From positions 1-46,753 of the forward strand of contig DYLE01000001.1 in NCBI GenBank assembly GCA_020722245.1: a DNA stretch of 46,753 nt. Direction: 5' to 3'. Origin of the DNA: Desulfonema limicola (lineage in GTDB: Bacteria; Desulfobacterota; Desulfobacteria; Desulfobacterales; Desulfosalsimonadaceae). Under the pieces are notes generated by a model. It had not been told where the DNA came from and did no database searches. It worked only from the letters and a program-made list of their open reading frames with translations. Made by a program: the position numbers and the translations under genes. Positions 26,013 to 42,666 of this stretch are shown here, one piece after another (positions within the stretch are counted from its first letter, which is position 1; each line of letters starts with the position of its first letter).

Positions 26013-26023
26013 CTCGCTGAGGC

Positions 26024-26869: not shown

Positions 26870-26900
26870 CCTATGGCCTCCTTGATGATGTTTGTTGATG

Positions 26901-27346: not shown

Positions 27347-27375
27347 TTGACGCAGGCCCTTATTCCCGTTATCTT
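27347..27375 (+). promoter_or_regulatory. Sigma70-like promoter candidate TTGACG-N17-TATCTT placed 6 nt before ATG 27382 (predicts a leaderless mRNA)
   Basis: TTGACG at 27347-27352, a 17-nt spacer, TATCTT at 27370-27375. No SD between the -10 and the ATG. Confidence 0.3.
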
Positions 27376-27381
27376 ACACCT

Positions 27382-27711: not shown

Positions 27712-29589
27712 TCAGGCATAAAGAAGCCCGGCCAGATCGTTAAGCCCGAGCTGCTCCAGGGTCTCTTTTTTCGGAACCCCGTCCGCATTGAAGCCGCGCA
27801 GCTCGTAGAATTCCTTCAACATCTTGTCCATATCCGGAACGCTCCCCGCCGTGGGTCCGTCTTCAATCGCGGTCATCAGGCGTTTGGGAAGCCGGTCGTC
27901 CTGTGCGCGGGCCCCGAAAAGGTTGGTCAGCCCTCGTTTCATGTACCATACCTTCCGGCCGATCGCCACCACCTCATCGATCGAATAGTCAAACCCGGTG
28001 ACATGGTTTACCATGGCCACCGCCTGGGTGGCGTTTAAGGGAACCGCCCCGAGGTTGCAGAAAAGCGCGCAGCTTGAGAAAAACATGCCGTAATCCTGGC
28101 AGGCGACGTTCAGTTCCGCTCTTTTTTCGCTGCTGAGTTCTTCATACTGGGCAGCGAGCGCTTCGATTTCCGGAATGATCTGGGCTCCGCCTTCCACATT
28201 GAAGTTTAAGCTGGCTTCATGGCAGGCCCCCCGGGGGGATACCCCGTAGGCCAGCCCGTAGCCGTGGGCCCCTCGCGGATCGTGCATCGGCGCCTCAAGC
28301 CCCTTGACGGTGGTCAGAAAATCAGAGGCGTTTTTTCCGATTTTTTTCGCCGCCGCCGCGCTTCCCTCGGCCAGGACCTGTCCGAATCCTTCTTTTTTGC
28401 CGATTTTTTCGCACACGGCCACGATCGCTTCGGAGTTTCCCCAGGTGAGTTTCAGCCCGTCGGTGTCTTTTTCGGTGATCAGACCGTTTTCAAAGCATTC
28501 GATGGCAAAGGCGATGGTGGCGCCGCAGGTGATGGTGTCCATTCCATATCGGTTGCAGAGATCATTGGCCTTGGCGATGGATTCGATGTCGGAATTTAAG
28601 CACATGGTGCCGAAGGTGGCGATGGTCTCATACTCCGGCGACGGCCCTTTTTCGATTTTAAACGGACCCTCCTTGACCTGAGCCTCTTTTTTGCAGGCCA
28701 CGCCGCACCCGTAGCAGGTTTTATGCCCGGCAAAAATTTTTTCCTCGATGGCGCCCGGTCCGATGGCGTCGATGAGCTCCCATTGGTTCATCTGCCAGTT
28801 TTTTATCGGGATGTCTCCGCCCAGAATCCCCACATCGATATGGGCGGGGGTTCCGCTGGAACGGAGGGCGTCGATAAAGATGCTTTCTTCGTATACGGTT
28901 TTAAGCTCTTCTTTCAGTTCTTTCAGCTTGTCGGGATGGGCGATCTCCACCTGTCCGGAGCCCGCGGCATAGATGGCCTTGAGGTTTTTGGACCCCCACA
29001 CCGCCCCCATGCCGGTGCGGCCGGCGGCATGCCCCTTGTTGTTGATGATCGAGGCAAACCGGATCCCTTTTTCTCCGGCCGGTCCGATGCAGATGACCTG
29101 GCCGGGGCCCTTGGCCTCCGGTTTATGATCCTCGAGCATCTGATCGTTGGTGTCATAGGTGTCTTTGCCCCAGTATTTACCGGCGTTCCGGATTTCAACC
29201 TGATCGTCATTGATGAAGATATAAACCGGGGATTTGGCCGCGCCGGTGAGGATGATGCCGTCGTATCCGGCGAATTTCAGGTATGCCCCGAAAAATCCGC
29301 CGGTGTTCGCCTCGCCCCAGAAACCGGTCAGGGGGGATTTCGCACCCATGGTCCACCGGGCAACCGCGTCCATCTTTATTCCCGTCAGTGGGCCGGTCAT
29401 CAGCACAAAGGGATTGGCCGGGGATAATGGATCAAAACCCGGGTTCCCCTTGATCAAATCAAGGTAGATCTGAGTGCCGAACCCCATGCCCCCGATATAG
29501 GTCCTGGCAAAGGACAGATCCAGGGGCTTTTTTTCGATGCTGCCTGAGGTCAGGTCGATATAGAGCATTTTTCCCGCATAGCCGCCCAT
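27712..29589 (-). CDS. Aldehyde:ferredoxin oxidoreductase (tungsten/molybdopterin AOR family)
   Basis: MGGYAGKMLYIDLTSGSIEKKPL...YIGGMGFG N-terminal domain; 4Fe-4S ligands in CYGCGVAC plus RGACHE; 625 aa. Confidence 0.92.
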   Translation of the reverse strand: MGGYAGKMLYIDLTSGSIEKKPLDLSFARTYIGGMGFGTQIYLDLIKGNPGFDPLSPANPFVLMTGPLTGIKMDAVARWTMGAKSPLTGFWGEANTGGFFGAYLKFAGYDGIILTGAAKSPVYIFINDDQVEIRNAGKYWGKDTYDTNDQMLEDHKPEAKGPGQVICIGPAGEKGIRFASIINNKGHAAGRTGMGAVWGSKNLKAIYAAGSGQVEIAHPDKLKELKEELKTVYEESIFIDALRSSGTPAHIDVGILGGDIPIKNWQMNQWELIDAIGPGAIEEKIFAGHKTCYGCGVACKKEAQVKEGPFKIEKGPSPEYETIATFGTMCLNSDIESIAKANDLCNRYGMDTITCGATIAFAIECFENGLITEKDTDGLKLTWGNSEAIVAVCEKIGKKEGFGQVLAEGSAAAAKKIGKNASDFLTTVKGLEAPMHDPRGAHGYGLAYGVSPRGACHEASLNFNVEGGAQIIPEIEALAAQYEELSSEKRAELNVACQDYGMFFSSCALFCNLGAVPLNATQAVAMVNHVTGFDYSIDEVVAIGRKVWYMKRGLTNLFGARAQDDRLPKRLMTAIEDGPTAGSVPDMDKMLKEFYELRGFNADGVPKKETLEQLGLNDLAGLLYA

Positions 29590-29601
29590 GGTGCAAGCCT
29601 C

Positions 29602-30015
29602 CTAGTAAACATTGTATTGGCTGTAGCCGTGTTCCTCCAGGTACTTGGGATACATCTCATAGGTGGGTTTGATGGCCGGAAGCAGCTTTAATATTTTCGG
29701 AATGGGGCCTTTTGCGATCATCTGTTTTCGGGTCAGGGCCATGGTCAGGTTGACCTTGCCGAACCAGAATTTATGGGCGATATCCGCATTCATGGACATC
29801 TCGACGATCGCCTTTGTTTCGGTATCGCGGGGCCTGATATCGATCTTGTCCCCGGAGCAATCCACCACGAGGACCAGGTCCGGATCGGTATAGGAAAACC
29901 GGATGATCAGTTTGGATTCAAGCAGCTTGTTCGCCACCTCCGGGGTGTCGGCCACCAGTTTAAAAAACCCGACCAATACCTCTTCGAATTTTTCCGAACT
30001 CTCAAATAATCCCAT
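29602..30015 (-). CDS. Stand-alone SCP2 sterol/lipid-carrier domain protein
   Basis: 137 aa. Contains ...MSMNADIAHKFWFGKVNLTMALTRKQMIAKGPIPKILKLLP, typical of the SCP2 fold. Confidence 0.8.
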   Translation of the reverse strand: MGLFESSEKFEEVLVGFFKLVADTPEVANKLLESKLIIRFSYTDPDLVLVVDCSGDKIDIRPRDTETKAIVEMSMNADIAHKFWFGKVNLTMALTRKQMIAKGPIPKILKLLPAIKPTYEMYPKYLEEHGYSQYNVY

Positions 30016-30051
30016 GATTTCCTCCTTATGATTGAACGTTAGGTTGATTGG

Positions 30052-31233
30052 CTAATACGCTTTCTGGATATAGGGGAGGAGTGCCTCGGGATCCACCTCC
30101 CGTGGGTTGTAGAAGGATGTCCCGTCGTTTAAGGCGCCTTCCGCGATGGCGGCAAGTCCGTCCTCAGGCACGCCCACATCCCTCAACCGCAAGGGGAGGG
30201 CGCCCAGCCGGTTTAGTTTTTCCCTGAGCTTATATACCGCGTCAATGGCCTTTCGGGCGGCGTCTTCTTCAGATAGTCCGGCGGTGTGTTCGCCCATCAC
30301 CGGGGCCAGGCGGGCGAGTCTGGTCTTGATTTGTTCAAAGTTGTACTCCATGCCGTAGGGAAGATAAATGGCGTTGGCGATGCCATGAGGCACACGGAAC
30401 AGCCCGCCGGTGGCGTGGGCCATGCCGTGGACACAGCCCACCATGGAATGGGTGAAGGCAACGCCGGCCATGGTTGAGGCGATGAGCATGGCGCCTCTGG
30501 CTTCGATGTCCTCTCCGTTTTCCGTGGCTCTGGGCAGGTGGTTTACAATCAGCTCGATGGCGCCCAAGGCAAACGCATCGGATATGGGGCTGGCCTGAAT
30601 GCCGACATAGGCCTCCAGGGCATGGGTTAAGGCATCCATGCCGGTGCCCGCGGTCATGTTCGGCGGAAGGGAGACCGTCATTTCCGGATCGAGCACAGCC
30701 AGGTTCGGGAGCAGAAATTTATCCGGAAAGGCCAGCTTCTCTTTGTTCTCTTCGTCATAGATGACGGCCACCATGGTCACCTCGCTGCCGGTGCCGGCGG
30801 TGGTCGGAATCACGATATGGGGTTTGAGCGGCCGGGTCAGGGTGTGGGCGCCCGAGTAGTCCTCAACCAGGTCTCCGCCTTCCGAGAAAAGGATGTTCGA
30901 GGCCTTTGCGGTGTCGATCACGCTGCCGCCGCCGATGGAGATGATCCCTTGGGCGCCGGAGTCCTTGATCTGGCCGGCGCAGGTCTTGACGTCGTTGAGC
31001 CGGCCGTCCTGGGCCACATCCAGAAACTCCCCGGTGACCTCGCATCCGGCTTCCGCAAGCCCGTCCGCGACCTTTTTGACCAGACCCAGGTCGCTGATGA
31101 TGCGGTCGGAAACGATGAAGTATTTTTTGATGCCGATGATATCCAGCTCAGGTTTCAGGCTTGTTGCAATACCGATCTGATAAACGACCTTGGTGGGATT
31201 GTAGAACTCAAAAAATTCAGGCAAGGGGAACAT
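30052..31233 (-). CDS. Iron-containing (group III) alcohol dehydrogenase
   Basis: GGGSVIDTAK motif and His-rich metal site (HALEAY, HSMVGCVHGMAH). ATG 31233 is preferred because AAGGAG lies 6 nt upstream. The ORF-track start 31356 adds 41 implausible residues. Confidence 0.9.
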   Translation of the reverse strand: MFPLPEFFEFYNPTKVVYQIGIATSLKPELDIIGIKKYFIVSDRIISDLGLVKKVADGLAEAGCEVTGEFLDVAQDGRLNDVKTCAGQIKDSGAQGIISIGGGSVIDTAKASNILFSEGGDLVEDYSGAHTLTRPLKPHIVIPTTAGTGSEVTMVAVIYDEENKEKLAFPDKFLLPNLAVLDPEMTVSLPPNMTAGTGMDALTHALEAYVGIQASPISDAFALGAIELIVNHLPRATENGEDIEARGAMLIASTMAGVAFTHSMVGCVHGMAHATGGLFRVPHGIANAIYLPYGMEYNFEQIKTRLARLAPVMGEHTAGLSEEDAARKAIDAVYKLREKLNRLGALPLRLRDVGVPEDGLAAIAEGALNDGTSFYNPREVDPEALLPYIQKAY

Positions 31234-31434
31234 GGCAGACTCCTTAACTTTGGGGGTTAGAAGATTCAGTCCGTCAACCAGCAATATTTTTAGCACAGGG
31301 ATGATCTTTTCGTCAACAGAATAAATGCAACGCCTGCGATTTACATAAAATTGCACGGGTTTTGAAATAATGACAAAAAAGAGACAAAAATTTGACGGCG
31401 ATGTGAAGGATGGGCTGAAACAGTGATCAATGAA

Positions 31435-31474
31435 AAGACGACCCTGTGGGTTACAGCCCCGCCAGGGTCGTCTT
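31435..31474 (-). terminator. Intrinsic-terminator-like hairpin 11 nt downstream of the thiolase stop
   Basis: 12-bp perfect stem aagacgaccctg / cagggtcgtctt with a 16-nt loop. On the minus strand it is followed by ttcatt (U-rich run uuuucauu including the stem end). Confidence 0.5.
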
Positions 31475-31485
31475 GTGTTTGTGGA

Positions 31486-32697
31486 TTACCCCTTGTATTT
31501 GCCGATGATGGCGACGCTGCAGATGTTCTGGAACGGAAACCCGCCCAGGTTGTGGGTCAGACCCAGCCTTGGGTTTTCGATCTGGCGTTTACCCGCCCGT
31601 CCATGAAGCTGCAGGTACATCTCGTAGAGCATCCGCAGCCCGGACGCGCCGATGGGGTGCCCGAAGCATTTGAGGCCGCCGTCGAGCTGGCAGGGGACCC
31701 CGCCGCCATGCAGATCATAAAAGCCGTTCATGATGTCCTCTCTGGCTTTTCCCCTTTCCGAGATATGCAGGTCCTCGTAGGTGACGAATTCCGTGATGGA
31801 AAAACAGTCATGGACCTCCATCATGCTGATTTCTTTTCTGGGGTTTTCAATGCCGGCCTCCTTATACGCCATGGTGCTGCATTTGGAGGTGGTCAGAAAA
31901 TGGTCGCAGTCCCAGTCGTTGTAAGCCATTTCTTCACCGCTGCTCAAAACAATCTGGAGGGCCTTGACCGATACAAAATCTTTTTTACCCATTTTTTTTG
32001 CGATTTCCGGGGTCGTGACAATCGCGCAGGCGGAGCCGTCGCTGACCCCGCAGCAGTCAAACAGACCAAGGGGATGGGCGATGATGGGGGCCGCAAGGAT
32101 TTGATCCTCGGTCACCGCTTTCTGAAGGTGCGCCTTGGGGTTCAAGGTGCCGTTGGCATGGCTTTTGGCCGAAACATGCGCCATGGCCCGTTTCAGGTCT
32201 TCAGGCTTGATTTTATACTTTGCGGCATATGCGCTGGCGAGCTGGGCAAAGGATCCCGGAGCGGTCAGGTTCGGCCACCACTGCCAGATAAGGGTGCCGG
32301 CGTTTGAACCTGCCCCAGGCAGTCCGCCGTAGCCGGTATCTTTCAGTTTTTCCACCCCCAGCGCCAGGCAGACATCATAGGCGCCTGAGGCCACCGCATA
32401 ACAGGCGCCTCGGAACGCCTCGGTTCCGCTGGCGCAATAGTTTTCCACACGGGTGACCGGAATCATGGGAAGATGCAGGGTGACGGACAGGGGCATGGCG
32501 GTTTTCCCCACATTGACCTCATCCATGCAGGTACCGAACCATGCGGCTTGAATATCCTTTTGCTCGATTCCGGCATCCGCCAGGCATTCCTCATACGCCT
32601 CGAGCATCAGTTCTTCAGCCCCCACGTCCCAGCGTTCTCCGAACTTGGTGCATCCCATCCCGATGATGGCGACCTTATCTTTTATTCCTGTAGCCAT
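31486..32697 (-). CDS. Thiolase, SCPx/archaeal-type (non-fused), catalytic residues intact
   Basis: VENYCASGTEAF (nucleophile Cys), EVHDCF (His), GGLKCFGHPIGASG (second Cys, GHP). Confidence 0.9.
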   Translation of the reverse strand: MATGIKDKVAIIGMGCTKFGERWDVGAEELMLEAYEECLADAGIEQKDIQAAWFGTCMDEVNVGKTAMPLSVTLHLPMIPVTRVENYCASGTEAFRGACYAVASGAYDVCLALGVEKLKDTGYGGLPGAGSNAGTLIWQWWPNLTAPGSFAQLASAYAAKYKIKPEDLKRAMAHVSAKSHANGTLNPKAHLQKAVTEDQILAAPIIAHPLGLFDCCGVSDGSACAIVTTPEIAKKMGKKDFVSVKALQIVLSSGEEMAYNDWDCDHFLTTSKCSTMAYKEAGIENPRKEISMMEVHDCFSITEFVTYEDLHISERGKAREDIMNGFYDLHGGGVPCQLDGGLKCFGHPIGASGLRMLYEMYLQLHGRAGKRQIENPRLGLTHNLGGFPFQNICSVAIIGKYKG

Positions 32698-32736
32698 GTT
32701 TTTTTCCTCCTCTTTATGGATGGCAGTCTATGCGGG

Positions 32737-35469
32737 TTAAATTTTAAACAGTTTTCCGATAAGCTGGGATTTCATGACATCCCCCTCGATTTTGAGCTTT
32801 CCGGATGTAAAGGCCTTCATGGGATCCAGCTTTCCGGAAACCATATCCAGAAAATCGGCTTCGGCCATGTTCAAGGTGCAGGTGGGCTTGTCCGCCTTGC
32901 CGGCCTCCACCGTGCACTTGGCGTCCGCAACCTTCACCACCCAGCTGCCGCCGCCGCTTCCGGATATATGATACTGGAAGGTGACGTCCACTCCCGCCGC
33001 GGCAGATGCGTTAAAGGCGGTCGGCATTTTATCAAAGACCTCCTTGACGGTGACTCCGGCAGAGGGCTTTGAGCCGGCCTCTTCTTTTTTCGCGCCACTT
33101 TCTTTGGGCGTCAGCAGGTCAAAGAGCGCTGAATTGAGATCCGTAAACTCCTTGGCGCCCTCCATGGCGCTGATTTTATCGATGTTCTCGTCGATCTGTT
33201 CGGGGGTCGGCGGGTTCTGCGCGTCTCCGAGCTGAACCCCGGCGCTGGTGAGCACCGCGGCCCTGTTGAAGTAGCCCATGCCGGCGTTGAAGATTTTTCC
33301 GGTTTCCGTGCAGTTATCGCTGCACAGATACAACACCATGGGGGCGACGAACTCCGGTTTCATTTTTACGAATATCTCCGGCGGCATGATGTCCTCGGTG
33401 AGCCGGGATCCGGCCAGGGGCGCGATGGTGTTGACCTTGATGTCATACTTCGCCCCTTCCAGCTTTAAGGTGTTCATGAACCCGACCAGGGCCATTTTCG
33501 CCGAGGAGTAGTTGGTTTGTCCGAAATTGCCGTAGAGCCCGGCCGCGGAGGTGGTCATGATGATGCGGCCGAACCCGTTATCCCGCATGACCTTGAAGGC
33601 GGGCTTTGTCACGTTATAGGCGCCGTTTAAATGCACCGCCAGAACCGCCGCCCAGTTTTCCGGTTCCATCTTGACAAAGCTTTTGTCTCTTAGAATGCCG
33701 GCGTTGTTGATCAGGATGTCCACCCGGCCGAAGGCATCCAGGGCGGTTTTTACGATGGCCTCACCGCCTTCGGGGGTGGCGACGTTGTCGTAGCTGGCCA
33801 CGGCCTTGCCGCCCAGATCCTGGATTTCTTTTACGACCTTGTCCGCCGGGGAGCTGGAGCCTGCGCCGGTGCCGTCCCTGGCGCCGCCCAGATCATTGAC
33901 CACCACCGATGCCCCCCGTTTGGCAAGTTCCAGGGCGTAGACCCGTCCGAGACCGCCTCCGGCCCCGGTCACAATGGCCACACGGCCGTCAAACCGGATT
34001 TTTTTCATTTCCTCCGCAGCCCCGGGAATCGGCGCGGCTTTCCAGAAATAGTTGACAAAGCCGCGTTCCTCGTCTTCGTTGCGTTTTCGAAATACCATCT
34101 GTACCGGAAGCCCGACCTTTAACTCCTCCAAGGTGCAGTCCGTAAAGTCGGCCATAAACCGGCCGCCGCCTTCAAACTGAATCATTCCGTATTTATGGGG
34201 CGGCTCAACGGAAACCGCCAGCATGTCTCCGGTAAAGGTTTTAACCTTTGCCGGAATATCCGCGAACTCGTAGTCATCCTGACTGTGCCGGGCGGTGCAC
34301 GCGGGATTGACGCAGACGTCGGTTTTGGGAAACTGCGGCGTTCCACAGACCCGGCATTTGCCGCCCACAAGCCCCAGCAGCATCTTACGCCGTCTCCACA
34401 GGGTCGTCAACGCGGTCTGGGTTTCCGCCTCGGCCCGGATCCCCATTTCCGGATGAAGGAGGTCCCTGAATTTAAGGAATTTGAGGTAATTGTCCGTGGT
34501 TTCCTTATGCTCCAGGGTGCGTTTGAATTTGTTGCGTTCAGGCATCTTGGCGATGTTTGGGGTGACCTCGAAAAGAAACGCGCTGCATCCCTGGCCGAAG
34601 CTGGCCATGACGATCTTATCGCCGGGTTTGGCCTCGTCTAATGCCGCGGTCATCATCAACAGGGGATGGGCGGTACCGGTCTCACCGCAGACCTCATGCA
34701 GGTTGTCGATCACCTTGTCCGGCGAGGCGCCGAGCTTTTTGGCGATGTTTTTGTGCTCCGCCTTGAAGAAACACGGATACACCAGTTTATTGACATCCTG
34801 GATGGTGATATTGAGCTTTTTGAAAAGGCCGTTCACCGCCTCAGGAATGATCTTGGCGTATCCTTCATCCCGGACCCAGCGTTCCTCCCAGGTGTAGTCG
34901 TATTTTTTGAAGGCGCCCCGGTAGTGGTCCACAAAATCATAGGAAACCGAGTAGGACCCCTTGTATTCGGCGATGACATTGGTATCGCCGATCATAAACG
35001 AGGCGGCCCCATCGCCGAACCACATCTCATAAAAATAGGCCGGCTTGGTTTCCCTCTTGTCCGAGGCGGTTACCAGAACGCTTTTTCGTTCCCCTCCTTT
35101 AACCGATTCGAGAGCGCTCAAAAGCGCGTTGGTCCCCGCTTTCTGGGAAGATGTAAAGTCAGAGGTGACGATATCGCTTCTGAGATTCAAGGCGGTGGAG
35201 ACGATCCCGGCGTTCTGACGGTCCGCAAACGGCAGGGTGGTGGAGGCGAGAAACAGGCCGTCGATTTTCTTTTTGTCCATGCCCTTCAAACAATCCCGGG
35301 AGGCCGCCACCGCCATGGTGACGGCGTCTTCGTCCCAGTAGCACATGGAGCGTTCACCCTGGGCCACCATGATCACCGCAGGGGCGAACCATCCGATGCT
35401 CTGGAATATCGACATACGGTTGAGTCTCAAGCGGGGGATATAGGCGCCGTAAGATGTGATTCCAATCAT
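32737..35469 (-). CDS. 910-aa four-domain fusion: HMG-CoA-synthase-like (thiolase-fold) domain, DUF35 Zn-ribbon/OB-fold, MFE-2-type SDR dehydrogenase, SCP2
   Basis: aa 1-345 are HMGCS-like (GITSYGAYIPRLRL, WDEDAVTMA). aa 372-391 are the ribbon CRVCGTPQFPKTDVCVNPAC, followed by the OB part. aa 491-745 carry TGAGGGLGR and YSSAK. The C-terminus is SGKLKIEGDVMKSQLIGKLFKI (SCP2). Confidence 0.88.
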   Translation of the reverse strand: MIGITSYGAYIPRLRLNRMSIFQSIGWFAPAVIMVAQGERSMCYWDEDAVTMAVAASRDCLKGMDKKKIDGLFLASTTLPFADRQNAGIVSTALNLRSDIVTSDFTSSQKAGTNALLSALESVKGGERKSVLVTASDKRETKPAYFYEMWFGDGAASFMIGDTNVIAEYKGSYSVSYDFVDHYRGAFKKYDYTWEERWVRDEGYAKIIPEAVNGLFKKLNITIQDVNKLVYPCFFKAEHKNIAKKLGASPDKVIDNLHEVCGETGTAHPLLMMTAALDEAKPGDKIVMASFGQGCSAFLFEVTPNIAKMPERNKFKRTLEHKETTDNYLKFLKFRDLLHPEMGIRAEAETQTALTTLWRRRKMLLGLVGGKCRVCGTPQFPKTDVCVNPACTARHSQDDYEFADIPAKVKTFTGDMLAVSVEPPHKYGMIQFEGGGRFMADFTDCTLEELKVGLPVQMVFRKRNEDEERGFVNYFWKAAPIPGAAEEMKKIRFDGRVAIVTGAGGGLGRVYALELAKRGASVVVNDLGGARDGTGAGSSSPADKVVKEIQDLGGKAVASYDNVATPEGGEAIVKTALDAFGRVDILINNAGILRDKSFVKMEPENWAAVLAVHLNGAYNVTKPAFKVMRDNGFGRIIMTTSAAGLYGNFGQTNYSSAKMALVGFMNTLKLEGAKYDIKVNTIAPLAGSRLTEDIMPPEIFVKMKPEFVAPMVLYLCSDNCTETGKIFNAGMGYFNRAAVLTSAGVQLGDAQNPPTPEQIDENIDKISAMEGAKEFTDLNSALFDLLTPKESGAKKEEAGSKPSAGVTVKEVFDKMPTAFNASAAAGVDVTFQYHISGSGGGSWVVKVADAKCTVEAGKADKPTCTLNMAEADFLDMVSGKLDPMKAFTSGKLKIEGDVMKSQLIGKLFKI

Positions 35470-35521
35470 TTTTTCTTCTCCTCTTTTTTAGGGTCGTATA
35501 TCGGTTGAACAGGCTATTTAT

Positions 35522-37633
35522 TCATAGCTTAAACAGTTTTCCAATAAGCTGGGATTTCATGACATCCCCTTCGATTTTCAGCTTTCCGGAGGTATAGGCC
35601 TGCATGGCGGGGAGCACCCCGTTGATCATATCCAGAAAATCCTTGTCCGCCATTTTCAGGGTGCAGGTCGGCTTGCTATGCACCCCGGGCTCGATCGTGC
35701 AGGATCCGTCCTTGACGCTGCAGTGCCAGTCCCCGCCGTTGGCCCCCGAGATATGATATTGGAAGACCACGTCTACACCCTTGGCGGCCTCCGGGTTAAA
35801 CGCCGCCGGCATGGCCTTGAACACATCGGCGGTGGAGGTCAGTTTGGCGCCGGCCTCAGCCTGGGGCTTTGCCGGTGCGCTAAAGGCGTTCATGACGTCC
35901 CCCACCTGTTCGTTTAATTCAAAATACAACTTTCCACCCTTCAACGAAGCAACCTTGTCGAACCGGCCGACCACATCTTCCACGGAGGGCGGGTTGACGC
36001 CGTCCCCGATAACCACCCCGGGTCCGGTGATGACCGCGGCCCGGTTGAAGAATCCCATACCGGCGTTATAAATATTCCCGTTGACCTTGCATTTTTCAGA
36101 ACAGAGGTATAGCACCATGGGGGAGACGAATTCCGGCTTCATCTTTTCAAAAAGCTCGGGCGGCATCACGTCCTCGGTCAGGCGGGAGGCCGCGATGGGG
36201 GCGATGGTGTTGACCTTGATGTCGTACTTGGCCCCCTCCAGTTTGAGGGTGTTCATGAAACCCACCAGGCCCATCTTGGCGGAGGAGTAGTTGGTCTGGC
36301 CGAAATTGCCGTAGAGCCCGGCCGCAGAGGTCGTCATGAGGATCCGGCCGTAGCCGTTTTCCCGCATCACCTTGAAAGCGGGGCGGGTCACGTTATACGC
36401 GCCGTTCAGATGAACGTTCAAGACCGCCTGCCAGTTTTCAGGCTCCATTTTCAGAAAACTCTTATCGCGAAGGATCCCCGCGTTGTTGATCAGAATATCG
36501 ACCTTTCCGAATGCGTCTATGGCGGTTTTTACGATGGCCTCACCGCCTTCCGGGGTGGCGACGTTGTCGTAGCTGGCGACCGCCTCCCCGCCCAGCGCCT
36601 TGATCTCTTCCACCACCTTGTCCGCCGGACCCTTGTCCTTGCCGGATCCGTCCCGGGTTCCGCCCAGGTCATTGACCACCACCTTTGCGCCCCGCCTGGC
36701 CAGGTCGAGGGCATAGATCCTTCCGAGGCCGCCTCCGGCGCCGGTGACAATGGCCACCCGTCCGTCAAAACGGATTTCATCCTTGGGCATGTCGCCGTAT
36801 TCAAACAGTCCGTTGGTGATGACCTCCTCACCGGTTTTGGCATTGATGGTTTTCCAGAGGACCTTTCCCTCCTCGATCTTCCAGATCTGCGTCTTGATGG
36901 GGTCGCCGGGATACAGCGGTTTGGAGAACCGGCATTTCAACCGTCTGACCTTTTCCGGCGCTCCGGGAGTCAGGTTTTGCATCAGCGCCCGGCAGGCATA
37001 CCCGTAGGTGCACAGACCGTGCATGATCGGTTTTTCAAAACCCGCCATTTTGGCAAAATCCTGGTCCACGTGAAGGGCGAAGAGATCGCCGGACAACCGG
37101 TAAAGCAGGGGCTGGTTCTGATTGGGATGGGCCTCCACCTCGAAATCCGGCTTTTTTTTCGGAAATTCTAATGTGTCCTTTGGGGCCGCTTCACCGCCGA
37201 ATCCGCCGTCCAGCCGGGCAAAAATGGTCAGCACACTGGTGAAGAGTTTTTTACCGTTCGCATCAAAGGTGTCGCTTTCACCGATGACCAGGGCTCCTTT
37301 CCCCTTTCCCTTGTCGTACATGTGGGTGATTTTTCCTGCGGTGACCAGCTTCCCCTCGGTGGGAATCGGCCGGTGAAAGATCAGATCCTGTTCCCCGTGC
37401 AGGATACCGGCCAGGTTGACGTTGGCGTTGATTCCGATATGGGTCAGAAATTCAAAGATCGAGGCGATGGAAAACGTCGGAATCACCTTCAGGTTTTTCT
37501 CGTAGGTAAACTCGGGTTCTGAATAGCCGGCGCCGATCCCCAGGGCATACAGGATAACATCCTTCCAGGTGTAGTCCTTGGAGATGGGTCCGATGGGTTT
37601 TCCTACCGCGTCAAGGTTAAGCGCCATGTTCAT
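35522..37633 (-). CDS. 703-aa fusion: MaoC-type (R)-specific enoyl-CoA hydratase 2 (double hot-dog), MFE-2-type SDR dehydrogenase, SCP2
   Basis: aa 1-286 carry YRLSGDLFALHVDQDFAKMAGFEKPIMHGLCTYG (hydratase-2 motif variant). aa 287-540 carry TGAGGGLGR and YSSAK. The C-terminal SCP2 ends KLKIEGDVMKSQLIGKLFKL. Confidence 0.9.
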   Translation of the reverse strand: MNMALNLDAVGKPIGPISKDYTWKDVILYALGIGAGYSEPEFTYEKNLKVIPTFSIASIFEFLTHIGINANVNLAGILHGEQDLIFHRPIPTEGKLVTAGKITHMYDKGKGKGALVIGESDTFDANGKKLFTSVLTIFARLDGGFGGEAAPKDTLEFPKKKPDFEVEAHPNQNQPLLYRLSGDLFALHVDQDFAKMAGFEKPIMHGLCTYGYACRALMQNLTPGAPEKVRRLKCRFSKPLYPGDPIKTQIWKIEEGKVLWKTINAKTGEEVITNGLFEYGDMPKDEIRFDGRVAIVTGAGGGLGRIYALDLARRGAKVVVNDLGGTRDGSGKDKGPADKVVEEIKALGGEAVASYDNVATPEGGEAIVKTAIDAFGKVDILINNAGILRDKSFLKMEPENWQAVLNVHLNGAYNVTRPAFKVMRENGYGRILMTTSAAGLYGNFGQTNYSSAKMGLVGFMNTLKLEGAKYDIKVNTIAPIAASRLTEDVMPPELFEKMKPEFVSPMVLYLCSEKCKVNGNIYNAGMGFFNRAAVITGPGVVIGDGVNPPSVEDVVGRFDKVASLKGGKLYFELNEQVGDVMNAFSAPAKPQAEAGAKLTSTADVFKAMPAAFNPEAAKGVDVVFQYHISGANGGDWHCSVKDGSCTIEPGVHSKPTCTLKMADKDFLDMINGVLPAMQAYTSGKLKIEGDVMKSQLIGKLFKL

Positions 37634-37849
37634 TCCTCCTTACTGATATGGGTGAAAGGTTTTGTGGAAAAACAGGTTCGGCATCGTGCGGTGATAAGGT
37701 CCAAAGGCTGTTTATTCATAAGATTAATGTCGGTTGCGGAATATTCTAGTCAATTTATTCCAACAAATGATGGGGAAACTATAAGGCCTTTTTTTCCTCA
37801 TGTCAAAAGTTTTTTTTATTTTTTGCGCCGGCCTTGTCAAAAATCCTTG

Positions 37850-37878
37850 TTGACTTGAAAAGGGTAAATCATTAAAGT
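37850..37878 (+). promoter_or_regulatory. Sigma70-like promoter candidate TTGACT-N17-TAAAGT upstream of the acyl-CoA ligase gene
   Basis: TTGACT at 37850-37855, a 17-nt spacer, TAAAGT at 37873-37878. The perfect 10-bp palindrome caatcgattg at 37901-37910 lies in the predicted leader. Confidence 0.3.
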
Positions 37879-37976
37879 GAGATCAATCAAATGATGGAAA
37901 CAATCGATTGAGGAAATCCGCGCCGTCGTTTTAACCCGATCACCCATGCAGAAGAAAAATCCGGCGGAGTTTACAC

Positions 37977-39677
37977 ATGACAAGCTATGCCCAACGACCC
38001 TGGCTGAAGCACTACGATCCCTGGGTCAGCGGCGAGATTGATGTTCCGAACAAGACCTATACGGATCTTCTGGAAGAGGGGCTTTCCTTTGCGCCCCAGC
38101 GGCCGGCCGTCTATTTTTTCGGAAAAACCATCACCTTTTCAGAGCTGGATGGGCTTTCCGCCCGGTTTGCCGAGTTTTTGACATCCCGCGGCTATGGCCC
38201 CGGCGATGTGGTCGGCATTCACCTGGTCAATATTCCCCAGTACCTCATCGTCCTGGCAGGGAGCCTGCGCGCCGGGTGTGCGGTGTCCGGTGTATCCTTT
38301 CTGCTGACCGCAAACGAAATGGCCCATCAGCTCAACGACTCGGGCGCAAGCCTGCTCGTGACCACGGATGCAAGCTTTGAGGAGAAGCTTTTTGCCATCA
38401 GCGACCGGCTTTCCGGCCTTAAGGATATCGTGGTCACCAACCTCGGTGATTTTTTGCCTCCTGTAAAAAGGCTTCTGGGGAGAATGTTAAAAAAGATACC
38501 TTCCGGAAAGGTTCTTCCGATGCCCGGCAAACAGGTTTTTCATCTTAATCGATTACTCCCTCTTTATTCGGGACGGTTTGAAAAGCCGAAGCTCACGCCC
38601 GAGGATGTCTGTTTGATTCAATATACCGGCGGAACCACCGGGCTTCCCAAGGGAACCCTTCTGACCCATCGGAACATCGTCGCCAATGTGACCCAGGCCC
38701 GGCAATGGACGGACCTAAAGCCTGAAGCTCATGATATCGGCCTGTCTGCGTTTCCTTTTTTTCATCTGGCCGGGCTGATGCTGGGGATGATGGCCTTGAG
38801 TTCTTCCGCGACCCAGTGCCTGATTCCGGATCCCAGGGACACAGGGCATATCTGCAAGCAGCTTCAAAAATACCATCCGACCCTGCTGGCCAATGTACCG
38901 ACCCTTTATCAGATGCTGCTTGCCGAGCCGGGGTTTCATCGCCTGGATTTTTCCGCATGCCGGCTTTGCATCTCCGGGGCCGCCCCCTTTGCCGAGGAGG
39001 CCATCACGGCGCTCGAGTCGGTGGTGGGGAAGGGGAAGGTGATGGAGGTCTATGGAATGACGGAAACCAGCCCCCTCCTCACCATGAACCCGTTCTCCGG
39101 TAAAAAAAAGATCGGCACGGTGGGGATCCCCATTCAAAGCACGCAGGTGAAGCTGGTGGACCTTGAGACCGGCACCCGGGAGGTGCCTGTGGGGGAGGCC
39201 GGAGAGCTGATCGCCCGCGGGCCCCAGGTTATGGCCGGGTATAAGGACAAGCCCGCGGAGACCGACCACGCCCTTCGGGAGTTTGAGGGGGAAAAATGGC
39301 TCTACACCGGGGACGTGGCGGTGATGGACGAGGACGGGTACTTCACCATTGTGGACCGGACCAAGGATATGGTCAACGTAGGGGGGTACAAGGTGTTTTC
39401 GCGGGAGGTGGAGGAGGTGCTCTACCAGCACAAGCAGATCGCCTTCTGCGCCGTTATCGGCAGGCCGAACCCCGGGCGTCCCGGAAGCGAACGGGTCGTC
39501 GCCGTTATTCAACCGGCCGGGGATTTTCAAAAGCTGGATAAACCCCGATTAGAAAAAGAAATTCTGGATTTCTGCCGCAAAACCCTGGCCCCTTACAAGG
39601 TTCCCCGGGTGGTGGAGTTTGTCGAATCCATACCGCTTACCAGCGTCGGCAAGGTGGATAAAAAGGCGCTTCGCTGA
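37977..39677 (+). CDS. AMP-dependent (long/medium-chain or branched) fatty-acid-CoA ligase
   Basis: YTGGTTGLPKG, GYKDKP..T, and the C-terminal PLTSVGKVDKK (A10 Lys within a P-x4-G-K context). Confidence 0.9.
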   Translation: MTSYAQRPWLKHYDPWVSGEIDVPNKTYTDLLEEGLSFAPQRPAVYFFGKTITFSELDGLSARFAEFLTSRGYGPGDVVGIHLVNIPQYLIVLAGSLRAGCAVSGVSFLLTANEMAHQLNDSGASLLVTTDASFEEKLFAISDRLSGLKDIVVTNLGDFLPPVKRLLGRMLKKIPSGKVLPMPGKQVFHLNRLLPLYSGRFEKPKLTPEDVCLIQYTGGTTGLPKGTLLTHRNIVANVTQARQWTDLKPEAHDIGLSAFPFFHLAGLMLGMMALSSSATQCLIPDPRDTGHICKQLQKYHPTLLANVPTLYQMLLAEPGFHRLDFSACRLCISGAAPFAEEAITALESVVGKGKVMEVYGMTETSPLLTMNPFSGKKKIGTVGIPIQSTQVKLVDLETGTREVPVGEAGELIARGPQVMAGYKDKPAETDHALREFEGEKWLYTGDVAVMDEDGYFTIVDRTKDMVNVGGYKVFSREVEEVLYQHKQIAFCAVIGRPNPGRPGSERVVAVIQPAGDFQKLDKPRLEKEILDFCRKTLAPYKVPRVVEFVESIPLTSVGKVDKKALR

Positions 39678-39707
39678 ACCTCATTGATATCGCCAGTGGG
39701 AGGAAAC

Positions 39708-40853
39708 ATGTTGAAAGCAGGAGCTTTAAGCGGAATCACCGTTGTAGACATCTCCCGGCTGCTGCCGGGTCCGTTTTGCACCATGATCCTGGCGGACCAC
39801 GGCGCGCGGGTGATCGCCATTGAGGACCGGCGCTATGCCGCGGAAGCCGGCGCGACCTTTACGGTGCTGCGCAACAAGTCGCACATGACCCTGAACCTGA
39901 AAACAGAGGCCGGCCGCGCCATTTTTTTTGATCTGATCAAAAGAGCCGATGTGATTGTGGAGGGGTTTCGGCCCGGGGTCGCCGGTCGGTTGGGGGTGGA
40001 TTACGAATCCGTGTCCGCAGTGAATTCAAGGATCATCTACTGCTCCATCACCGGCTACGGGCAGAACGGACCCTGCCGGGAGGTGGCCGGCCATGACGTG
40101 AACTATTTAAGCGTCGCCGGTGTTCTGGATCTGATCGGCGAAAAGAACCGCCCTCCGTCCATTCCGGGGATTCAGATCGCGGATCTGACCGGCGGCATGA
40201 ACGCGGTGATCGGGATTCTTCTGGCCCTTTATGCGCGGGAAAAAACCGGAAAAGGGCAGTACATCGATATCTCCATGACCGACGGCAGCCTGAGCCTGAT
40301 GCCGCTGGCCCTGAGCTTTCGGCAGATCACCGGTTCGCCGGTTACGCGTTCGGATTCCATCCTGTCCCATAGGTATGCCTGCTACAACACCTATGAGACC
40401 GCCGATAAACGCTACCTCTCCATCGGCGCCGTGGAAAACCGGTTCTGGAAAAACCTGTGTGAATACTTTGGTGTTCCGGAGTATACCCCTTTGCAGTATG
40501 ATGATTCCCGAAGGGAGGAGATCATCGACTTTTACAGGCGAAAAATCAGGGAAAAAACCCTGGCCCAGTGGGAGAAGGAGTTCTCCCCCCTGGATATCTG
40601 CTGGGGGTCGGTGCGGACCCTGGAAGAGGCCTTGGAATCCTCGCTGTTTCAGGAAAGGGGGATGGTCGTGGAACTGAAAGAAAAAGACGGCCGCAGGTCC
40701 AGGGTGCTGGGAATCCCGGTCAAGCTGAGCCGTACCCCGGGGTCGGTGCGCACGCCTCCGCCGGGTTTCGGTGAGGATACCCATGACATCCTGCGCGAGC
40801 TGGGGTATACGGATGAAAAAATTCGCGACCTCTTCGATCAAGGGGTGGTCTGA
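39708..40853 (+). CDS. Family III CoA-transferase fold, alpha-methylacyl-CoA racemase-like
   Basis: VVDISRLLPGPFCT, AGHDVNYLSVAGVL (compare racemase GHDINYLALSGVL), IQIADLTGG (Asp). ATG 39708 is preferred because GGAGG is 5 nt upstream. Confidence 0.85.
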   Translation: MLKAGALSGITVVDISRLLPGPFCTMILADHGARVIAIEDRRYAAEAGATFTVLRNKSHMTLNLKTEAGRAIFFDLIKRADVIVEGFRPGVAGRLGVDYESVSAVNSRIIYCSITGYGQNGPCREVAGHDVNYLSVAGVLDLIGEKNRPPSIPGIQIADLTGGMNAVIGILLALYAREKTGKGQYIDISMTDGSLSLMPLALSFRQITGSPVTRSDSILSHRYACYNTYETADKRYLSIGAVENRFWKNLCEYFGVPEYTPLQYDDSRREEIIDFYRRKIREKTLAQWEKEFSPLDICWGSVRTLEEALESSLFQERGMVVELKEKDGRRSRVLGIPVKLSRTPGSVRTPPPGFGEDTHDILRELGYTDEKIRDLFDQGVV

Positions 40854-40880
40854 AAATATTATCATAAAGGGAAGAAATCA

Positions 40881-41498
40881 ATGACGTCATCACTTGAAAA
40901 GGCAAAACAGAATCCGGATTCCATGAAGGCAAGGATACTGACCGCGGCGCGCCGGATTTTCGGAGAATACGGTTTTCACGGCACCACCACGCGCATGATC
41001 GCCAAGGCGGTGGACATCGACATCTCCACCCTCTATTACCACTGGGGGGAAAAGGGGGACCTCTATGAGGCGGTGATCTGTGATATCAACGAAGGGCTTC
41101 GACAGAAGCTGATCGAGGTGGAGAAAATGATCAAGGGGCGTCCCCTGGCCGAGCGGATTGAGATCGCGGTGGAAGAGATGGCGGATTATTTGTTTGCAAA
41201 CCCGGAGATATCCAACCTTACCCTTTTTCGATATTTCACCAAGACCCGGCATAAAAGCCTGCTGGATTTCAGGGTGCCGGAATTCATCTCCGACATCGCC
41301 TATTCCATGGGGCTGTCCACGGACCGCAAGAACGTTCCGGTGGACGCGAAGATGAAGGTGTTATCCATCATGAACGCCATTCATAACTTTGTTTCCGGTG
41401 AGAATTTTTTCCGGCCCATGCTGAAACTGGACCGGGAAAGCTATATCAAGGAGGCCAAGGAAACCTTAAAGTTTTTCAACCTCTCCGCCTTTACCTAA
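40881..41498 (+). CDS. TetR/AcrR family transcriptional regulator
   Basis: N-terminal HTH ARILTAARRIFGEYGFHGTTTRMIAKAVDIDISTLYYHWG. Confidence 0.9.
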   Translation: MTSSLEKAKQNPDSMKARILTAARRIFGEYGFHGTTTRMIAKAVDIDISTLYYHWGEKGDLYEAVICDINEGLRQKLIEVEKMIKGRPLAERIEIAVEEMADYLFANPEISNLTLFRYFTKTRHKSLLDFRVPEFISDIAYSMGLSTDRKNVPVDAKMKVLSIMNAIHNFVSGENFFRPMLKLDRESYIKEAKETLKFFNLSAFT

Positions 41499-41510
41499 AA
41501 ATTTGCACTC

Positions 41511-42233
41511 TCAGTCCTGAACCATCAGAAACAGCGATTCGATAAACTCAGGATCCTCGGTATCGATCACGGCAAGGATCTGCTTGTGCAGCCTTTTTTT
41601 ATGCTCCCCGAAGATCCCCCTTTTTTTCCGAAAGGTTCTGGCAAAGGCCAGGGATTCGGCCATCAGCCGGTCTGCGTCCGGGCAGGACTTTTCGATCACG
41701 TGGCTGGCCTCAAGCTCGGCGGCGGCAACCCTTCTTCCCGTGAGTTTCATTTCATTGAACTTGTAGTAGGGGATGGCCTTTTTAACAAAGGCGATCATGC
41801 CGGGAAGGAAGGGGATGCCCAGGTCCACCTCCGGAAAACAAAAGTAGCCCCGGTCGGCGCGCATCAGCCTGAAATCGCAGGCGCAGGCCAGGATGGCGCC
41901 GTTGCCGAAGGCGTGCCCGTTGATGGAGGCGATGGCCGGGACGGGGAGGAGCAGCAGCTTCTTAAAAACCGAGTTCATGCCGTAAAGAAACCCCTTGACG
42001 TTCTGAAGGTTCTGATCCTGCAGCTGCCTGCCCAGCCAGTCGACATCCACCCCCAGGGACCAGTACTTTTCGCTGGTTGAGGTGATCACGGCGGCGGTGA
42101 TGGTTTTGTCCGCCACCACCGCATCCAGGACCGCGTTCATTGAATCGGCGAACTCCAGGTTCTGCCGGTTCTCCCGGTTGTTCATTCGGATTACGGCGAC
42201 GGTTTCATCCTTTTCCCATTCAATAATCGACAT
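41511..42233 (-). CDS. Enoyl-CoA hydratase/isomerase family protein
   Basis: MSIIEWEKDETVAVIRMNNRENRQN..., GHAFGNGAILACACDFRLM, CFPEVDLGIPF. ATG 42233 is preferred (GGGGGAG upstream). The ORF-track start is 42320. Confidence 0.88.
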   Translation of the reverse strand: MSIIEWEKDETVAVIRMNNRENRQNLEFADSMNAVLDAVVADKTITAAVITSTSEKYWSLGVDVDWLGRQLQDQNLQNVKGFLYGMNSVFKKLLLLPVPAIASINGHAFGNGAILACACDFRLMRADRGYFCFPEVDLGIPFLPGMIAFVKKAIPYYKFNEMKLTGRRVAAAELEASHVIEKSCPDADRLMAESLAFARTFRKKRGIFGEHKKRLHKQILAVIDTEDPEFIESLFLMVQD

Positions 42234-42255
42234 GCGCTCCCCCTTGAGCCGGCGG

Positions 42256-42666
42256 TCAGCTCTTGTTTTGAATCTCCGCCAGCCGGTTTTCGATTTTTTG
42301 CCGAATAGACAGCAGGTCATCCTTTAAGGTCTGCAGCGATTCCATCCGTTCATCGATCTCGGCCAGTTTTTTTTCTCCGTATTCCAGGCTTTTTTTAAGC
42401 TGGTCCTCTTCCTTCATGTCCACGTTGGCCAGGCCGATCATTTCTGAAATTTCATTTAAGGAATAACCCAGCCGTTTTCCGCGAAGGATCAGCTTCAACC
42501 GCGCCCGGTTTCTTTTGGTGTAGACCCGGTGATTGCCCTTGCTGCGTTCGGGCATGATCAGCCCTTTTTCCTCATAAAATCGTATGGACCGGGTGCTGAT
42601 GTCCAGCTCATTGGCCAGCTCGGAGATGGTAAATCTCGTTTTTTCCTTTGGTTTTTTTCCCGACAT
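42256..42666 (-). CDS. MerR family transcriptional regulator (LiuR-like)
   Basis: FTISELANELDISTRSIRFYEEKGLI HTH plus a C-terminal coiled coil. It lies 22 nt upstream of the crotonase gene on the same strand. Confidence 0.88.
   Translation of the reverse strand: MSGKKPKEKTRFTISELANELDISTRSIRFYEEKGLIMPERSKGNHRVYTKRNRARLKLILRGKRLGYSLNEISEMIGLANVDMKEEDQLKKSLEYGEKKLAEIDERMESLQTLKDDLLSIRQKIENRLAEIQNKS

Follow-up and report, generated by a model that had tools for sequence, protein, structure and literature searches.

In a 46,753-nucleotide stretch of Desulfonema limicola DNA (contig DYLE01000001.1; hereafter the window), three adjacent genes encode a protein resembling the peroxisomal multifunctional enzyme MFE-2, a 910-aa fusion protein and a 3-ketoacyl-CoA thiolase. 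We read these genes as the core of a TetR-repressed beta-oxidation operon of the (3R), or MFE-2, type, which lies amid separate units and whose products would form a thiolase-tethered complex; judging from the sequences, we put the probability of this reading at about 60%. Most likely, the core would serve to break down acyl-CoAs that are long or 2-methyl-branched, by beta-oxidation with NAD in a multienzyme complex held together by tethering. The initial annotation of this DNA had proposed a single 15-kb lipid-catabolic supercluster. The region is instead a mosaic of units around one conserved core, and the noteworthy unit is the TetR-controlled core operon with its fusion protein rather than the supercluster. 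The core combines systems of known kinds, MFE-2-type beta-oxidation and a thiolase/DUF35 assembly, but the operon built on the fusion protein is itself undescribed in the literature searched. For Desulfobacterales, we found no description of the core operon, of the 910-aa fusion or of the trio of alcohol dehydrogenase, SCP2 and aldehyde oxidoreductase genes considered further below, and the proteogenomic papers on the Desulfobacteraceae that were consulted do not mention SCP2 or MaoC proteins.

The open reading frames (ORFs) of the window were listed and then scanned with Pfam and NCBIfam. All the genes and domains first named, including three SCP2 domains, were found in their places (Table 1), and elsewhere the window has genes for glycogen metabolism, for the modification of tRNA and for the envelope. 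No RNA element was detected in the window with Rfam or a tRNA search. A scan of a one-genome-per-species collection returned at least 181 related stretches, some of them from symbionts, and synteny was read on the best 80 by placing 19 window proteins on these loci. The 80 loci are nearly all from Desulfobacterales, the nearest being an uncultured Desulfonema metagenome-assembled genome (MAG) at 92% identity. Genes for the MFE-2-like protein, the fusion and the thiolase occur together wherever the contig allows, and a TetR orthologue (53-95% identical) adjoins them in nearly all of the 80 loci. The core operon, which is conserved in some 60 Desulfobacterales loci, is near-universal in this order; this breadth, together with its high conservation, fits a general role and argues against a narrow specialty. 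Three short contigs with the fusion gene at 67-72% identity (L029, L064 and L078) are binned as Gammaproteobacteria, Pseudomonadota or Halomonas MAGs; these are more likely mis-binned than a real occurrence outside Desulfobacterales.

The initial annotation had reported that the window lacks acyl-CoA dehydrogenase (ACAD) and electron-transfer flavoprotein (ETF) genes, leaving the first oxidation step unexplained. We confirm the absence: tblastn with eight ACADs detected none in the window, and the window holds no ETF genes. The step itself is nevertheless accounted for in relatives, where ACADs are members of the operon. One to three ACAD genes follow the thiolase gene in Desulfosarcina widdelii PP31 and in two further loci (L019 and L081), and an ACAD gene starts 15-660 bp past the thiolase gene in 45 of the 57 loci with enough flanking sequence. 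The other 12 loci are close relatives of the window. Because an ACAD follows the thiolase in 45 of 57 cases, the first oxidation step is ancestral to the operon and was lost from the window's locus; the ACAD left in the Desulfonema-like lineage to which the window belongs. The ancestral operon comprised genes for TetR, the MFE-2-like protein, the fusion, the thiolase and one to three ACADs, often with an acyl-CoA ligase gene and a gene similar to alpha-methylacyl-CoA racemase (AMACR). In D. widdelii, a FadH-like dienoyl-CoA reductase is also encoded downstream. At the place held by the ACAD in other lineages, two loci of the window's close relatives have a minus-strand ORF of 261-262 aa (L005, 14100-14885; L009, 15377-16165) with the look of an outer-membrane beta-barrel, ending in ...GVALKF; the window has neither this ORF nor an ACAD.

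The fusion protein consists of an N-terminal domain (residues 1-345) resembling HMG-CoA synthase (HMGCS) and PhlA, a DUF35 zinc ribbon and OB fold (about 350-470), an MFE-2-type short-chain dehydrogenase/reductase (SDR; about 493-760) and an SCP2 domain (about 816-910). The HMGCS-like part matches Pfam ACP_syn_III_C and falls below the cut-off of NCBIfam PRK04262 (206 bits, cut-off 244), while the DUF35 part matches zf-ChsH2 and OB_ChsH2_C and has a four-Cys ribbon (CRVC...CVNPAC). In the PDB, the N-terminal half matches PhlA (9skh, E 4e-35; also 5m3k), archaeal HMGCS (6esq_I, E 2e-26) and the DUF35 chain of the same archaeal complex (6esq_E, E 3e-12). Alignment with 6esq_I places Gln109, Thr78 and Pro232 of the fusion at the catalytic Cys, Glu and His of HMGCS, respectively (ssQKAGT versus faCKAGT). 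The fusion has more than 1300 homologues; the best 120 are all about 910 aa long and 69-92% identical, and in these Gln109 is found in 118, Thr78 in 113 and Pro232 in all 120. Of the HMGCS-like domain originally called, the fold is therefore present, but as an enzyme it has had all three catalytic residues replaced. Since these replacements are seen in the orthologues, we interpret the domain as a conserved pseudo-enzyme of the PhlA kind, not an HMG-CoA synthase.

One may also hypothesize that the domain has acquired a new catalysis, such as acyl transfer or a retro-Claisen-type reaction on branched intermediates, through non-classical residues. It is conserved much like the SDR domain (mean identity in the 120 orthologues 75% versus 79%), its Gln109 hardly varies, and members of the PhlA/MucA clade belong to active acyltransferase complexes (PMC12960953). 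We consider this improbable, however, given that no HMGCS catalytic residue survives, that the Cys position is variable in related proteins of about 480 aa (Q, M, L, K, R, E or T in 15 sampled members), and that the essential catalytic residues of PhlACB reside in its thiolase-like subunit PhlC (PMC12960953). These shorter relatives make up most of the 3080 representatives returned by an exhaustive profile search with the N-terminal half of the fusion, and they contain the dead HMGCS-like domain and DUF35 alone. Many (P0243-P0390 and P0391-P0509; L085, 8001-9473), for example in Phenylobacterium and Sphingomonas, are publicly labeled 'hydroxymethylglutaryl-CoA synthase family protein'. As the active-site Cys is absent from all 15 sampled, this name is probably misleading, and the 'HMG-CoA synthase' naming in the fusion's family needs correcting.

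In Alphaproteobacteria, an unfused version is found in the same gene order: a stand-alone hydratase 2, a dead-HMGCS/DUF35 protein and a thiolase that shares 62% identity with the window's, with a ligase and a crotonase close by. The existence of this version makes the Desulfobacterales form look like an old bacterial module in which an SDR-SCP2 unit was added to each of the first two genes. The SDR-SCP2 parts of the fusion and of the MFE-2-like protein are 71% identical in the window, and the two are ancient paralogues. Gene conversion between the two modules was rejected: the nearest neighbor in other genomes is of the same type in 90 of 90 comparisons. A further architecture, seen in the 800-aa protein P0249 from a high-GC organism, joins a dead HMGCS-like domain, DUF35 and an SDR with no SCP2 visible in the alignment; it may mark a stage on the way to the 910-aa fusion, or a separate path leading there.

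Known complexes suggest what this fusion may do. In each case studied so far, DUF35 connects a thiolase-fold enzyme with its partners: in the HMGCS complex of archaea, PhlACB and MucABC (PMC12960953), in Shy-Sal, and in the Sulfolobus fatty acid synthase complex discussed below. The archaeal 6esq complex, PhlACB and MucABC all share with our core the three-part set of thiolase, HMGCS-fold protein and DUF35, and PhlA, like the fusion, has an HMGCS-fold part without the catalytic Cys. In contrast to these complexes, the HMGCS-like and DUF35 parts form here a single chain extended by SDR and SCP2 domains, the thiolase has a full catalytic set, and there is no mevalonate or phloroglucinol context. 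By analogy, the dead HMGCS-like domain and DUF35 most likely constitute a docking scaffold for the thiolase, whose gene lies 39 bp downstream of the fusion gene. As scaffold, dehydrogenase and SCP2 are joined in one chain beside the thiolase gene, the gene architecture provides strong indirect evidence for an assembly like the thiolase/DUF35 complexes. The fusion would be a 'Rosetta stone' joining three thiolase/DUF35 assemblies that have been studied separately: those for the synthesis of mevalonate and of fatty acids in archaea, and that for acylation by PhlACB.

The likeness to the peroxisomal toolkit for branched-chain beta-oxidation, on which the initial annotation was built, is real at the sequence level. 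The MFE-2-like protein comprises a hydratase 2 (residues 21-273; MFE-2_hydrat-2_N and MaoC, both above the Pfam cut-offs), an SDR (292-491) and an SCP2 domain (614-702). Its PDB matches are Candida (3R)-hydroxyacyl-CoA dehydrogenase (2et6, E 2e-133), Drosophila MFE-2 (3oml, E 7e-133), human 17beta-HSD4 (1zbq, E 3e-93) and human hydratase 2 (1s9c, E 9e-48), and over 250 residues its SDR domain shares 57% identity with rat HSD17B4. This SDR has the YSSAK motif and the NAD-type signature VVVNDLGG. In the hydratase-2 motif, YRLSGDLFALH (consensus [YF]-x(1,2)-[LVIG]-[STGC]-G-D-x-N-P-[LIV]-H), the catalytic Asp and His are correctly spaced, with F-A in place of N-P. As in peroxisomes, hydratase 2, (3R)-hydroxyacyl-CoA dehydrogenase and SCP2 stand on one polypeptide, and also shared are a racemase-like protein with catalytic His and Asp and a thiolase of the SCP2-thiolase branch with the HDCF motif. 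The organization differs in several respects. The domain order is hydratase, dehydrogenase, SCP2, whereas peroxisomal MFE-2 has dehydrogenase, hydratase, SCP2. Peroxisomal SCPx is a thiolase-SCP2 fusion, but the window's thiolase carries no SCP2, which sits on its two partner proteins. ACADs of the window's relatives take the place of the peroxisomal acyl-CoA oxidase. Finally, a second dehydrogenase-SCP2 module on a dead HMGCS/DUF35 scaffold, and TetR control in an anaerobe, are further differences from the peroxisomal set.

Two other enzymes deduced initially, an SCPx-type thiolase and an AMACR-like protein, were borne out. The thiolase matches NCBIfam PRK06157 (701 bits, cut-off 403) and falls within the SCP2-thiolase/archaeal branch, with PDB matches to 7yvy (E 2e-50), archaeal ACAT (6esq_A, E 1e-49), SCP2-thiolase (6hsj, E 9e-43) and BbsB (7pxp, E 3e-41). 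Its identity across the loci is 77-96%. The catalytic set is intact, and the nucleophilic Cys (NYCASG), HDCF and GHPIGASG motifs identify it as a thiolase, not an aldolase of the Ltp2 or Sal type. As for the racemase-like family III protein, its top seven PDB relatives are all mycobacterial alpha-methylacyl-CoA racemases (E 5e-57 to 1e-54), the best being Mycobacterium tuberculosis MCR (1x74 and 8rmw, E 5e-57 to 8e-57). The catalytic His126 (AGHDVNY) and Asp156 (IADLTGG; M. tuberculosis MCR numbering) are conserved, and no NCBIfam CoA-transferase equivalog scored above cut-off. About 35 loci have an orthologue (58-85% identical) no more than a few kb away from the operon. The acyl-CoA ligase has long-chain-fatty-acid-CoA ligases as its top NCBIfam matches, all under cut-off. 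A ligase occupies this position in the window and in L001 only; copies 58-59% identical sit within the operon in three other loci (L019, L060 and L080). In L019, an NMO-family gene follows the racemase-like gene. The FabK/NMO-like gene at 6244-7212 of the window was considered as a dispersed operon member and rejected: it is 31% identical to the L019 gene, and no operator lies nearby.

Steroid side-chain beta-oxidation draws on similar parts. The bacterial systems (M. tuberculosis ChsH3, ChsB1/Hsd4A, MCR and Ltp thiolases; ChsH1-ChsH2(DUF35)-Ltp2; proteobacterial Shy-Sal) share with ours MaoC-type hydratases, MFE-2-type dehydrogenases, a racemase, SCPx-like enzymes of the thiolase fold and DUF35 docking. 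Unlike the steroid systems, however, our thiolase keeps its nucleophilic Cys and is therefore not a retro-aldolase, and steroid-ring genes are absent. In addition, the SDR scores 173 bits against the mycobacterial PDB homologue 3qlj versus 318 bits against animal MFE-2.

The direction of the pathway deserves attention, as an archaeal complex of similar composition is biosynthetic. In the fatty acid synthase complex of Sulfolobus acidocaldarius, the ketothiolase/DUF35 unit has as its partners an SDR reductase and a MaoC dehydratase, to which DUF35 forms the bridge (bioRxiv 10.1101/2024.07.05.601840). All four component types are present in our core, where they are distributed over three adjacent genes, and DUF35 is the assembly hub of the archaeal complex. 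The archaeal complex uses (R)-specific chemistry, as is predicted for the core, and both systems have a gene cluster under a TetR-like regulator. The core might accordingly run synthetically or reversibly, in CoA-based elongation independent of acyl carrier protein or in (R)-3-hydroxyacyl-CoA formation, with the fused reductase pulling the unfavorable thiolase condensation. Besides this shared component set, the homology to the archaeal thiolase/HMGCS/DUF35 condensing complex and the (3R) stereochemistry, which is typical of biosynthesis, speak for such a direction. We regard it as quite unlikely. Both SDRs have the NAD-type acidic residue after beta-2 seen in catabolic MFE-2, whereas the archaeal reductase is strictly NADPH-dependent. 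Furthermore, the partners of the core are ACADs (in relatives), ligases, racemase-like and FadH-like enzymes, while the Sulfolobus complex uses an enoyl-CoA reductase of the medium-chain (MDR) type, none of which is encoded in the window. The components are also covalently fused here, and the dead HMGCS-like and SCP2 domains are additions. TetR control is typical of fatty-acid catabolic operons. The SDR signature, the partner enzymes and the mode of control together favor degradation.

Regulation of the core was approached through the commonest 9-mer in 62 upstream regions, which extended to a 16-bp palindrome, TCCATCAnnTGATGGA. In nearly all loci, this palindrome precedes either the TetR or the MFE-2-like gene. 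In operons that begin with TetR, it lies 50-110 bp before that gene; where TetR is divergent, it precedes the MFE-2-like gene. The 1.34 Mb searched contain 45 sites that depart from it at no more than one position, and 44 of these are within 450 bp upstream of one of the two genes. Two copies occur in the divergent region 37634-37976, each overlapping the -10/+1 zone of a promoter-like site: copy 1 abuts the -10 box of the minus-strand promoter, and copy 2 is just downstream of the -10 box on the plus strand. These sites support the proposal that 37634-37976 acts as a shared control region. We retained the minus-strand promoter, with its 11/12 matches, for its position and its conserved -35 context (CTTTTGACA), which recurs in 14 upstream regions of relatives. 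As the divergent region has two operator copies, the ligase, AMACR-like and TetR genes appear to be co-controlled with the core, and TetR is the predicted repressor of both units. The predicted operator can be used for regulon mapping. No copy was found in the window near the alcohol dehydrogenase, SCP2 and aldehyde oxidoreductase genes or near the MerR and crotonase genes.

Taken together, the homologies describe a plausible reaction sequence. The ligase would convert the acid into its CoA ester, the racemase-like enzyme would turn (2R)- into (2S)-2-methylacyl-CoA where needed, and an ACAD encoded elsewhere would form the 2-enoyl-CoA. Hydratase 2 would then give the (3R)-hydroxyacyl-CoA, one of the two NAD-type SDR domains would oxidize it, and the thiolase would cleave the resulting 3-ketoacyl-CoA. 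With the thiolase docked on the dead HMGCS-like and DUF35 domains, the dehydrogenase would be covalently tethered to it, so that exergonic thiolysis could pull the unfavorable NAD-dependent oxidation through channeling, while the SCP2 domains would hold hydrophobic acyl tails. We infer the chemistry from homology and the complex from the gene fusion and the homologous complexes. Long or 2-methyl-branched chains fit the presence of SCP2 domains, a racemase-like enzyme and a thiolase of the SCPx type; the pathway may possibly be dedicated to branched lipids, isoprenoids or steroids.

Several points weigh against this beta-oxidation reading. The window itself has no ACAD or any ETF, and the hydratase-2 motif is non-canonical at its F-A residues. 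The combination of a (3R) hydratase and a reductase with thiolase/DUF35 also characterizes the biosynthetic Sulfolobus complex. A single-sequence AlphaFold2 (AF2) model of the fusion reached a pLDDT of 36 and was not used, complex formation being argued from fusion and homology. Furthermore, the promoter and terminator scan was overall at chance level, and the link between TetR and its operator rests on co-occurrence.

A bolder extension of the beta-oxidation reading would make the core the main beta-oxidation machine of Desulfobacterales: a tethered metabolon in which an active SCPx-type thiolase is held on a dead HMGCS/DUF35 scaffold bearing a (3R)-dehydrogenase and SCP2, with the MFE-2-like protein as partner, as a degradative counterpart of the archaeal thiolase/DUF35 assemblies whose channeling suits the energy limits of sulfate reduction. 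We put this forward tentatively. If true, the peroxisomal set of MFE-2, SCPx and AMACR would have in this core one of its nearest counterparts among prokaryotes, and the core may be an oxygen-free route by which 2-methyl-branched, isoprenoid-derived acids are mineralized in marine sediments. Fatty-acid degradation enzymes of Desulfobacterales are mostly annotated by analogy with FadAB, and a TetR-controlled, peroxisome-type operon would represent a distinct organization of beta-oxidation in energy-limited anaerobes. Much of the organic carbon oxidized in marine sediments is oxidized by Desulfobacterales (PMC11887813).

Table 1. Features of the core operon, its divergent unit and the flanking units (window positions)
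Feature	Position	Strand	Basis or remark
Aldehyde:ferredoxin oxidoreductase (AOR), tungsten-type	27712-29589	-	Pfam AFOR_N and AFOR_C
Free SCP2 protein, 137 aa	29602-30015	-	Pfam SCP2
Iron-type alcohol dehydrogenase (Fe-ADH); first gene of its trio with SCP2 and AOR	ORF 30052-31356; corrected 30052-31233	-	Pfam Fe-ADH and ADH_Fe_C
Terminator-like hairpin	31435-31474	-	Directly 3' of the thiolase stop codon
3-Ketoacyl-CoA thiolase, SCP2-thiolase/archaeal type, 403 aa; last core-operon gene in the window	31486-32697	-	
910-aa fusion (HMGCS-like, DUF35, SDR, SCP2)	32737-35469	-	Pfam
MFE-2-like protein, 703 aa; first core-operon gene	35522-37633	-	Pfam
Operator copy 1	37759-37774		TCCAACAAATGATGGG, 2 mismatches to TCCATCAnnTGATGGA
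Sigma-70-like promoter of the core genes (MFE-2-like, fusion, thiolase)	37778-37806	-	TTGACA, 17 nt, TATAGT; 11/12 matches
Weaker promoter-like site of the divergent unit (ligase, racemase-like, TetR)	37850-37878	+	TTGACT, 17 nt, TAAAGT; 9/12 matches; position only
Operator copy 2	37883-37898		TCAATCAAATGATGGA, 1 mismatch to TCCATCAnnTGATGGA
AMP-forming long-chain acyl-CoA ligase; heads the divergent unit	37977-39677	+	Pfam AMP-binding and AMP-binding_C
Alpha-methylacyl-CoA racemase-like family III protein	39684-40853	+	Pfam CoA_transf_3; carries GHDVNYLSVAGVL
TetR-family regulator	40881-41498	+	Pfam TetR_N
Crotonase-fold protein	ORF 41511-42320; likely start 42233	-	Pfam ECH_1
MerR-family regulator, directly upstream of the crotonase gene	42256-42666	-	Pfam MerR_1 and MerR-DNA-bind

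The Fe-ADH, free SCP2 and AOR genes, separated by gaps of 36 and 12 bp, constitute an autonomous, probably separately transcribed module: they stand behind a strong hairpin and recur without the beta-oxidation operon. The hairpin that follows the thiolase gene has a 12-bp stem (dG -27.5 kcal/mol, z -5.7), was equaled by none of 200 shuffles and is followed by UUCAUU. It was folded separately, as the terminator scanner skipped it owing to its long loop. In L005 and L009, the opposite-strand ORF resembling an outer-membrane protein intervenes between thiolase and Fe-ADH. The trio is found without the operon in four contexts (L084, L086, L087 and L088) and adjoins the core in the window's family and L082 only. 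Comparison with 391-aa orthologues makes the ATG at 31233 the probable Fe-ADH start. AOR matches PDB entries 9mqx (E 7e-121), 1aor (E 2e-110) and 8c0z (E 2e-99). The free SCP2 is the weakest of the domain calls (28 bits, Pfam cut-off 21.3). It has more than 1300 homologues, 76-96% identical. With an alignment-based AF2 model (pLDDT 87.5), the top Foldseek matches were the SCP2 proteins of human and yeast, along with the SCP-2L domain from human MFE-2 (TM 0.6-0.76).

An iron ADH beside a tungsten-type AOR, forming an alcohol-to-aldehyde-to-acid route, is established in sulfate reducers; the highly conserved SCP2 between ADH and AOR is particular to the trio, and we found no description of it. 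Insertion of an SCP2 gene between the two enzymes suggests hydrophobic alcohols or aldehydes as substrates. By analogy, the trio may oxidize these to acids, feeding the core operon. Activity on long-chain alcohols and aldehydes, in oxidation or in reduction, is suggested. The ADH-SCP2-AOR set is a separate conserved module meriting its own study.

MerR and crotonase are lineage-specific neighbors of the core. The 'LiuR-like' label given to MerR found no support: matches to NCBIfam CueR, ZntR and MerR are all sub-threshold, the protein has no C-terminal cysteines, and there are no liu genes in the window. MerR is linked to the core in close relatives only. The crotonase is likewise confined to close relatives and absent from L015, L017 and L018; its likely start at 42233 removes the apparent overlap with MerR. 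Where hydratases have GGGxE it has GNGAILA, so that the first catalytic Glu is absent, and FPEVDLG is kept; from these motifs, it is possibly an isomerase-type auxiliary enzyme. A crotonase near AOR in L087 was considered and proved not orthologous to it.

These neighboring units bear directly on whether the whole 15 kb might be one dedicated, co-regulated anaerobic pathway for bulky or methyl-branched lipids, be they isoprenoid acids or alcohols (phytol or pristanate, for example), steroid side chains or alkylsuccinate-derived acids. The comparison of synteny gives a divided answer: the core is conserved across Desulfobacterales, while linkage to ADH-SCP2-AOR, MerR and crotonase is family-limited. 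Outside the window's family, only TetR, MFE-2-like, fusion and thiolase genes, with an ACAD and often a racemase-like gene, are conserved. Close relatives retain the full gene order, but their MiaB, MnmA, LpxR, AI-2E and ThyX genes are equally collinear, and synteny there consequently carries little functional weight. The inventory itself fits such a pathway, with its catalytically equipped AMACR-like protein beside the operon in some 35 loci, SCPx-branch thiolase, three SCP2 domains and strong MFE-2 similarity, and so do the trio adjoining the operon in the window's clade and L082 and the esterase/lysophospholipase-like gene after AOR. Yet a hairpin and, in relatives, an opposite-strand ORF separate thiolase from ADH, operators are missing near the trio and near MerR and crotonase, and the trio stands alone elsewhere. 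Moreover, the recurrence of the operon in at least 181 stretches, symbionts included, suggests a general rather than a niche role, and the Pfam and NCBIfam scans of the window brought up no genes for removing 3-methyl branches, for steroid rings or for rearranging alkylsuccinates. A single 15-kb pathway is for these reasons unlikely, and the TetR-controlled core operon amid separate units remains our preferred reading.

Other parts of the window also show local organization. In L082 and L084, genes corresponding to the block at 21689-27233 (DUF4404, a lysophospholipase-like alpha/beta hydrolase, an AI-2E transporter, LpxR, ThyX and an acyl-ACP thioesterase) are collinear downstream of AOR, even where the operon is missing; this may be plain collinearity or an envelope-lipid turnover neighborhood. 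Three ORFs, 26905-27681(+), 5158-5748(-) and 3798-4196(+), have no significant Pfam match, and the first, which runs opposite to the DUF4404 gene and overlaps it, is probably spurious. At 179-3710, genes for a DUF6125 protein and a member of the crotonase family (above the cut-off of PRK09245) come after one for an acetoacetate-CoA ligase (NCBIfam, 953 bits, cut-off 639); the three may form a separate short-chain acyl-CoA unit. The FabK/NMO-like flavoprotein gene opens the segment 6244-9128 and precedes a gene whose product resembles butyryl-CoA:acetate CoA-transferase and ends in a fused GNAT acetyltransferase domain. Finally, a glycogen cluster spans 9129-19981, with GlgB, GlgA-like and phosphorylase-like genes and a 1436-aa protein in which the debranching domains GDE_N and GDE_C are joined to a domain of the alpha-amylase type.

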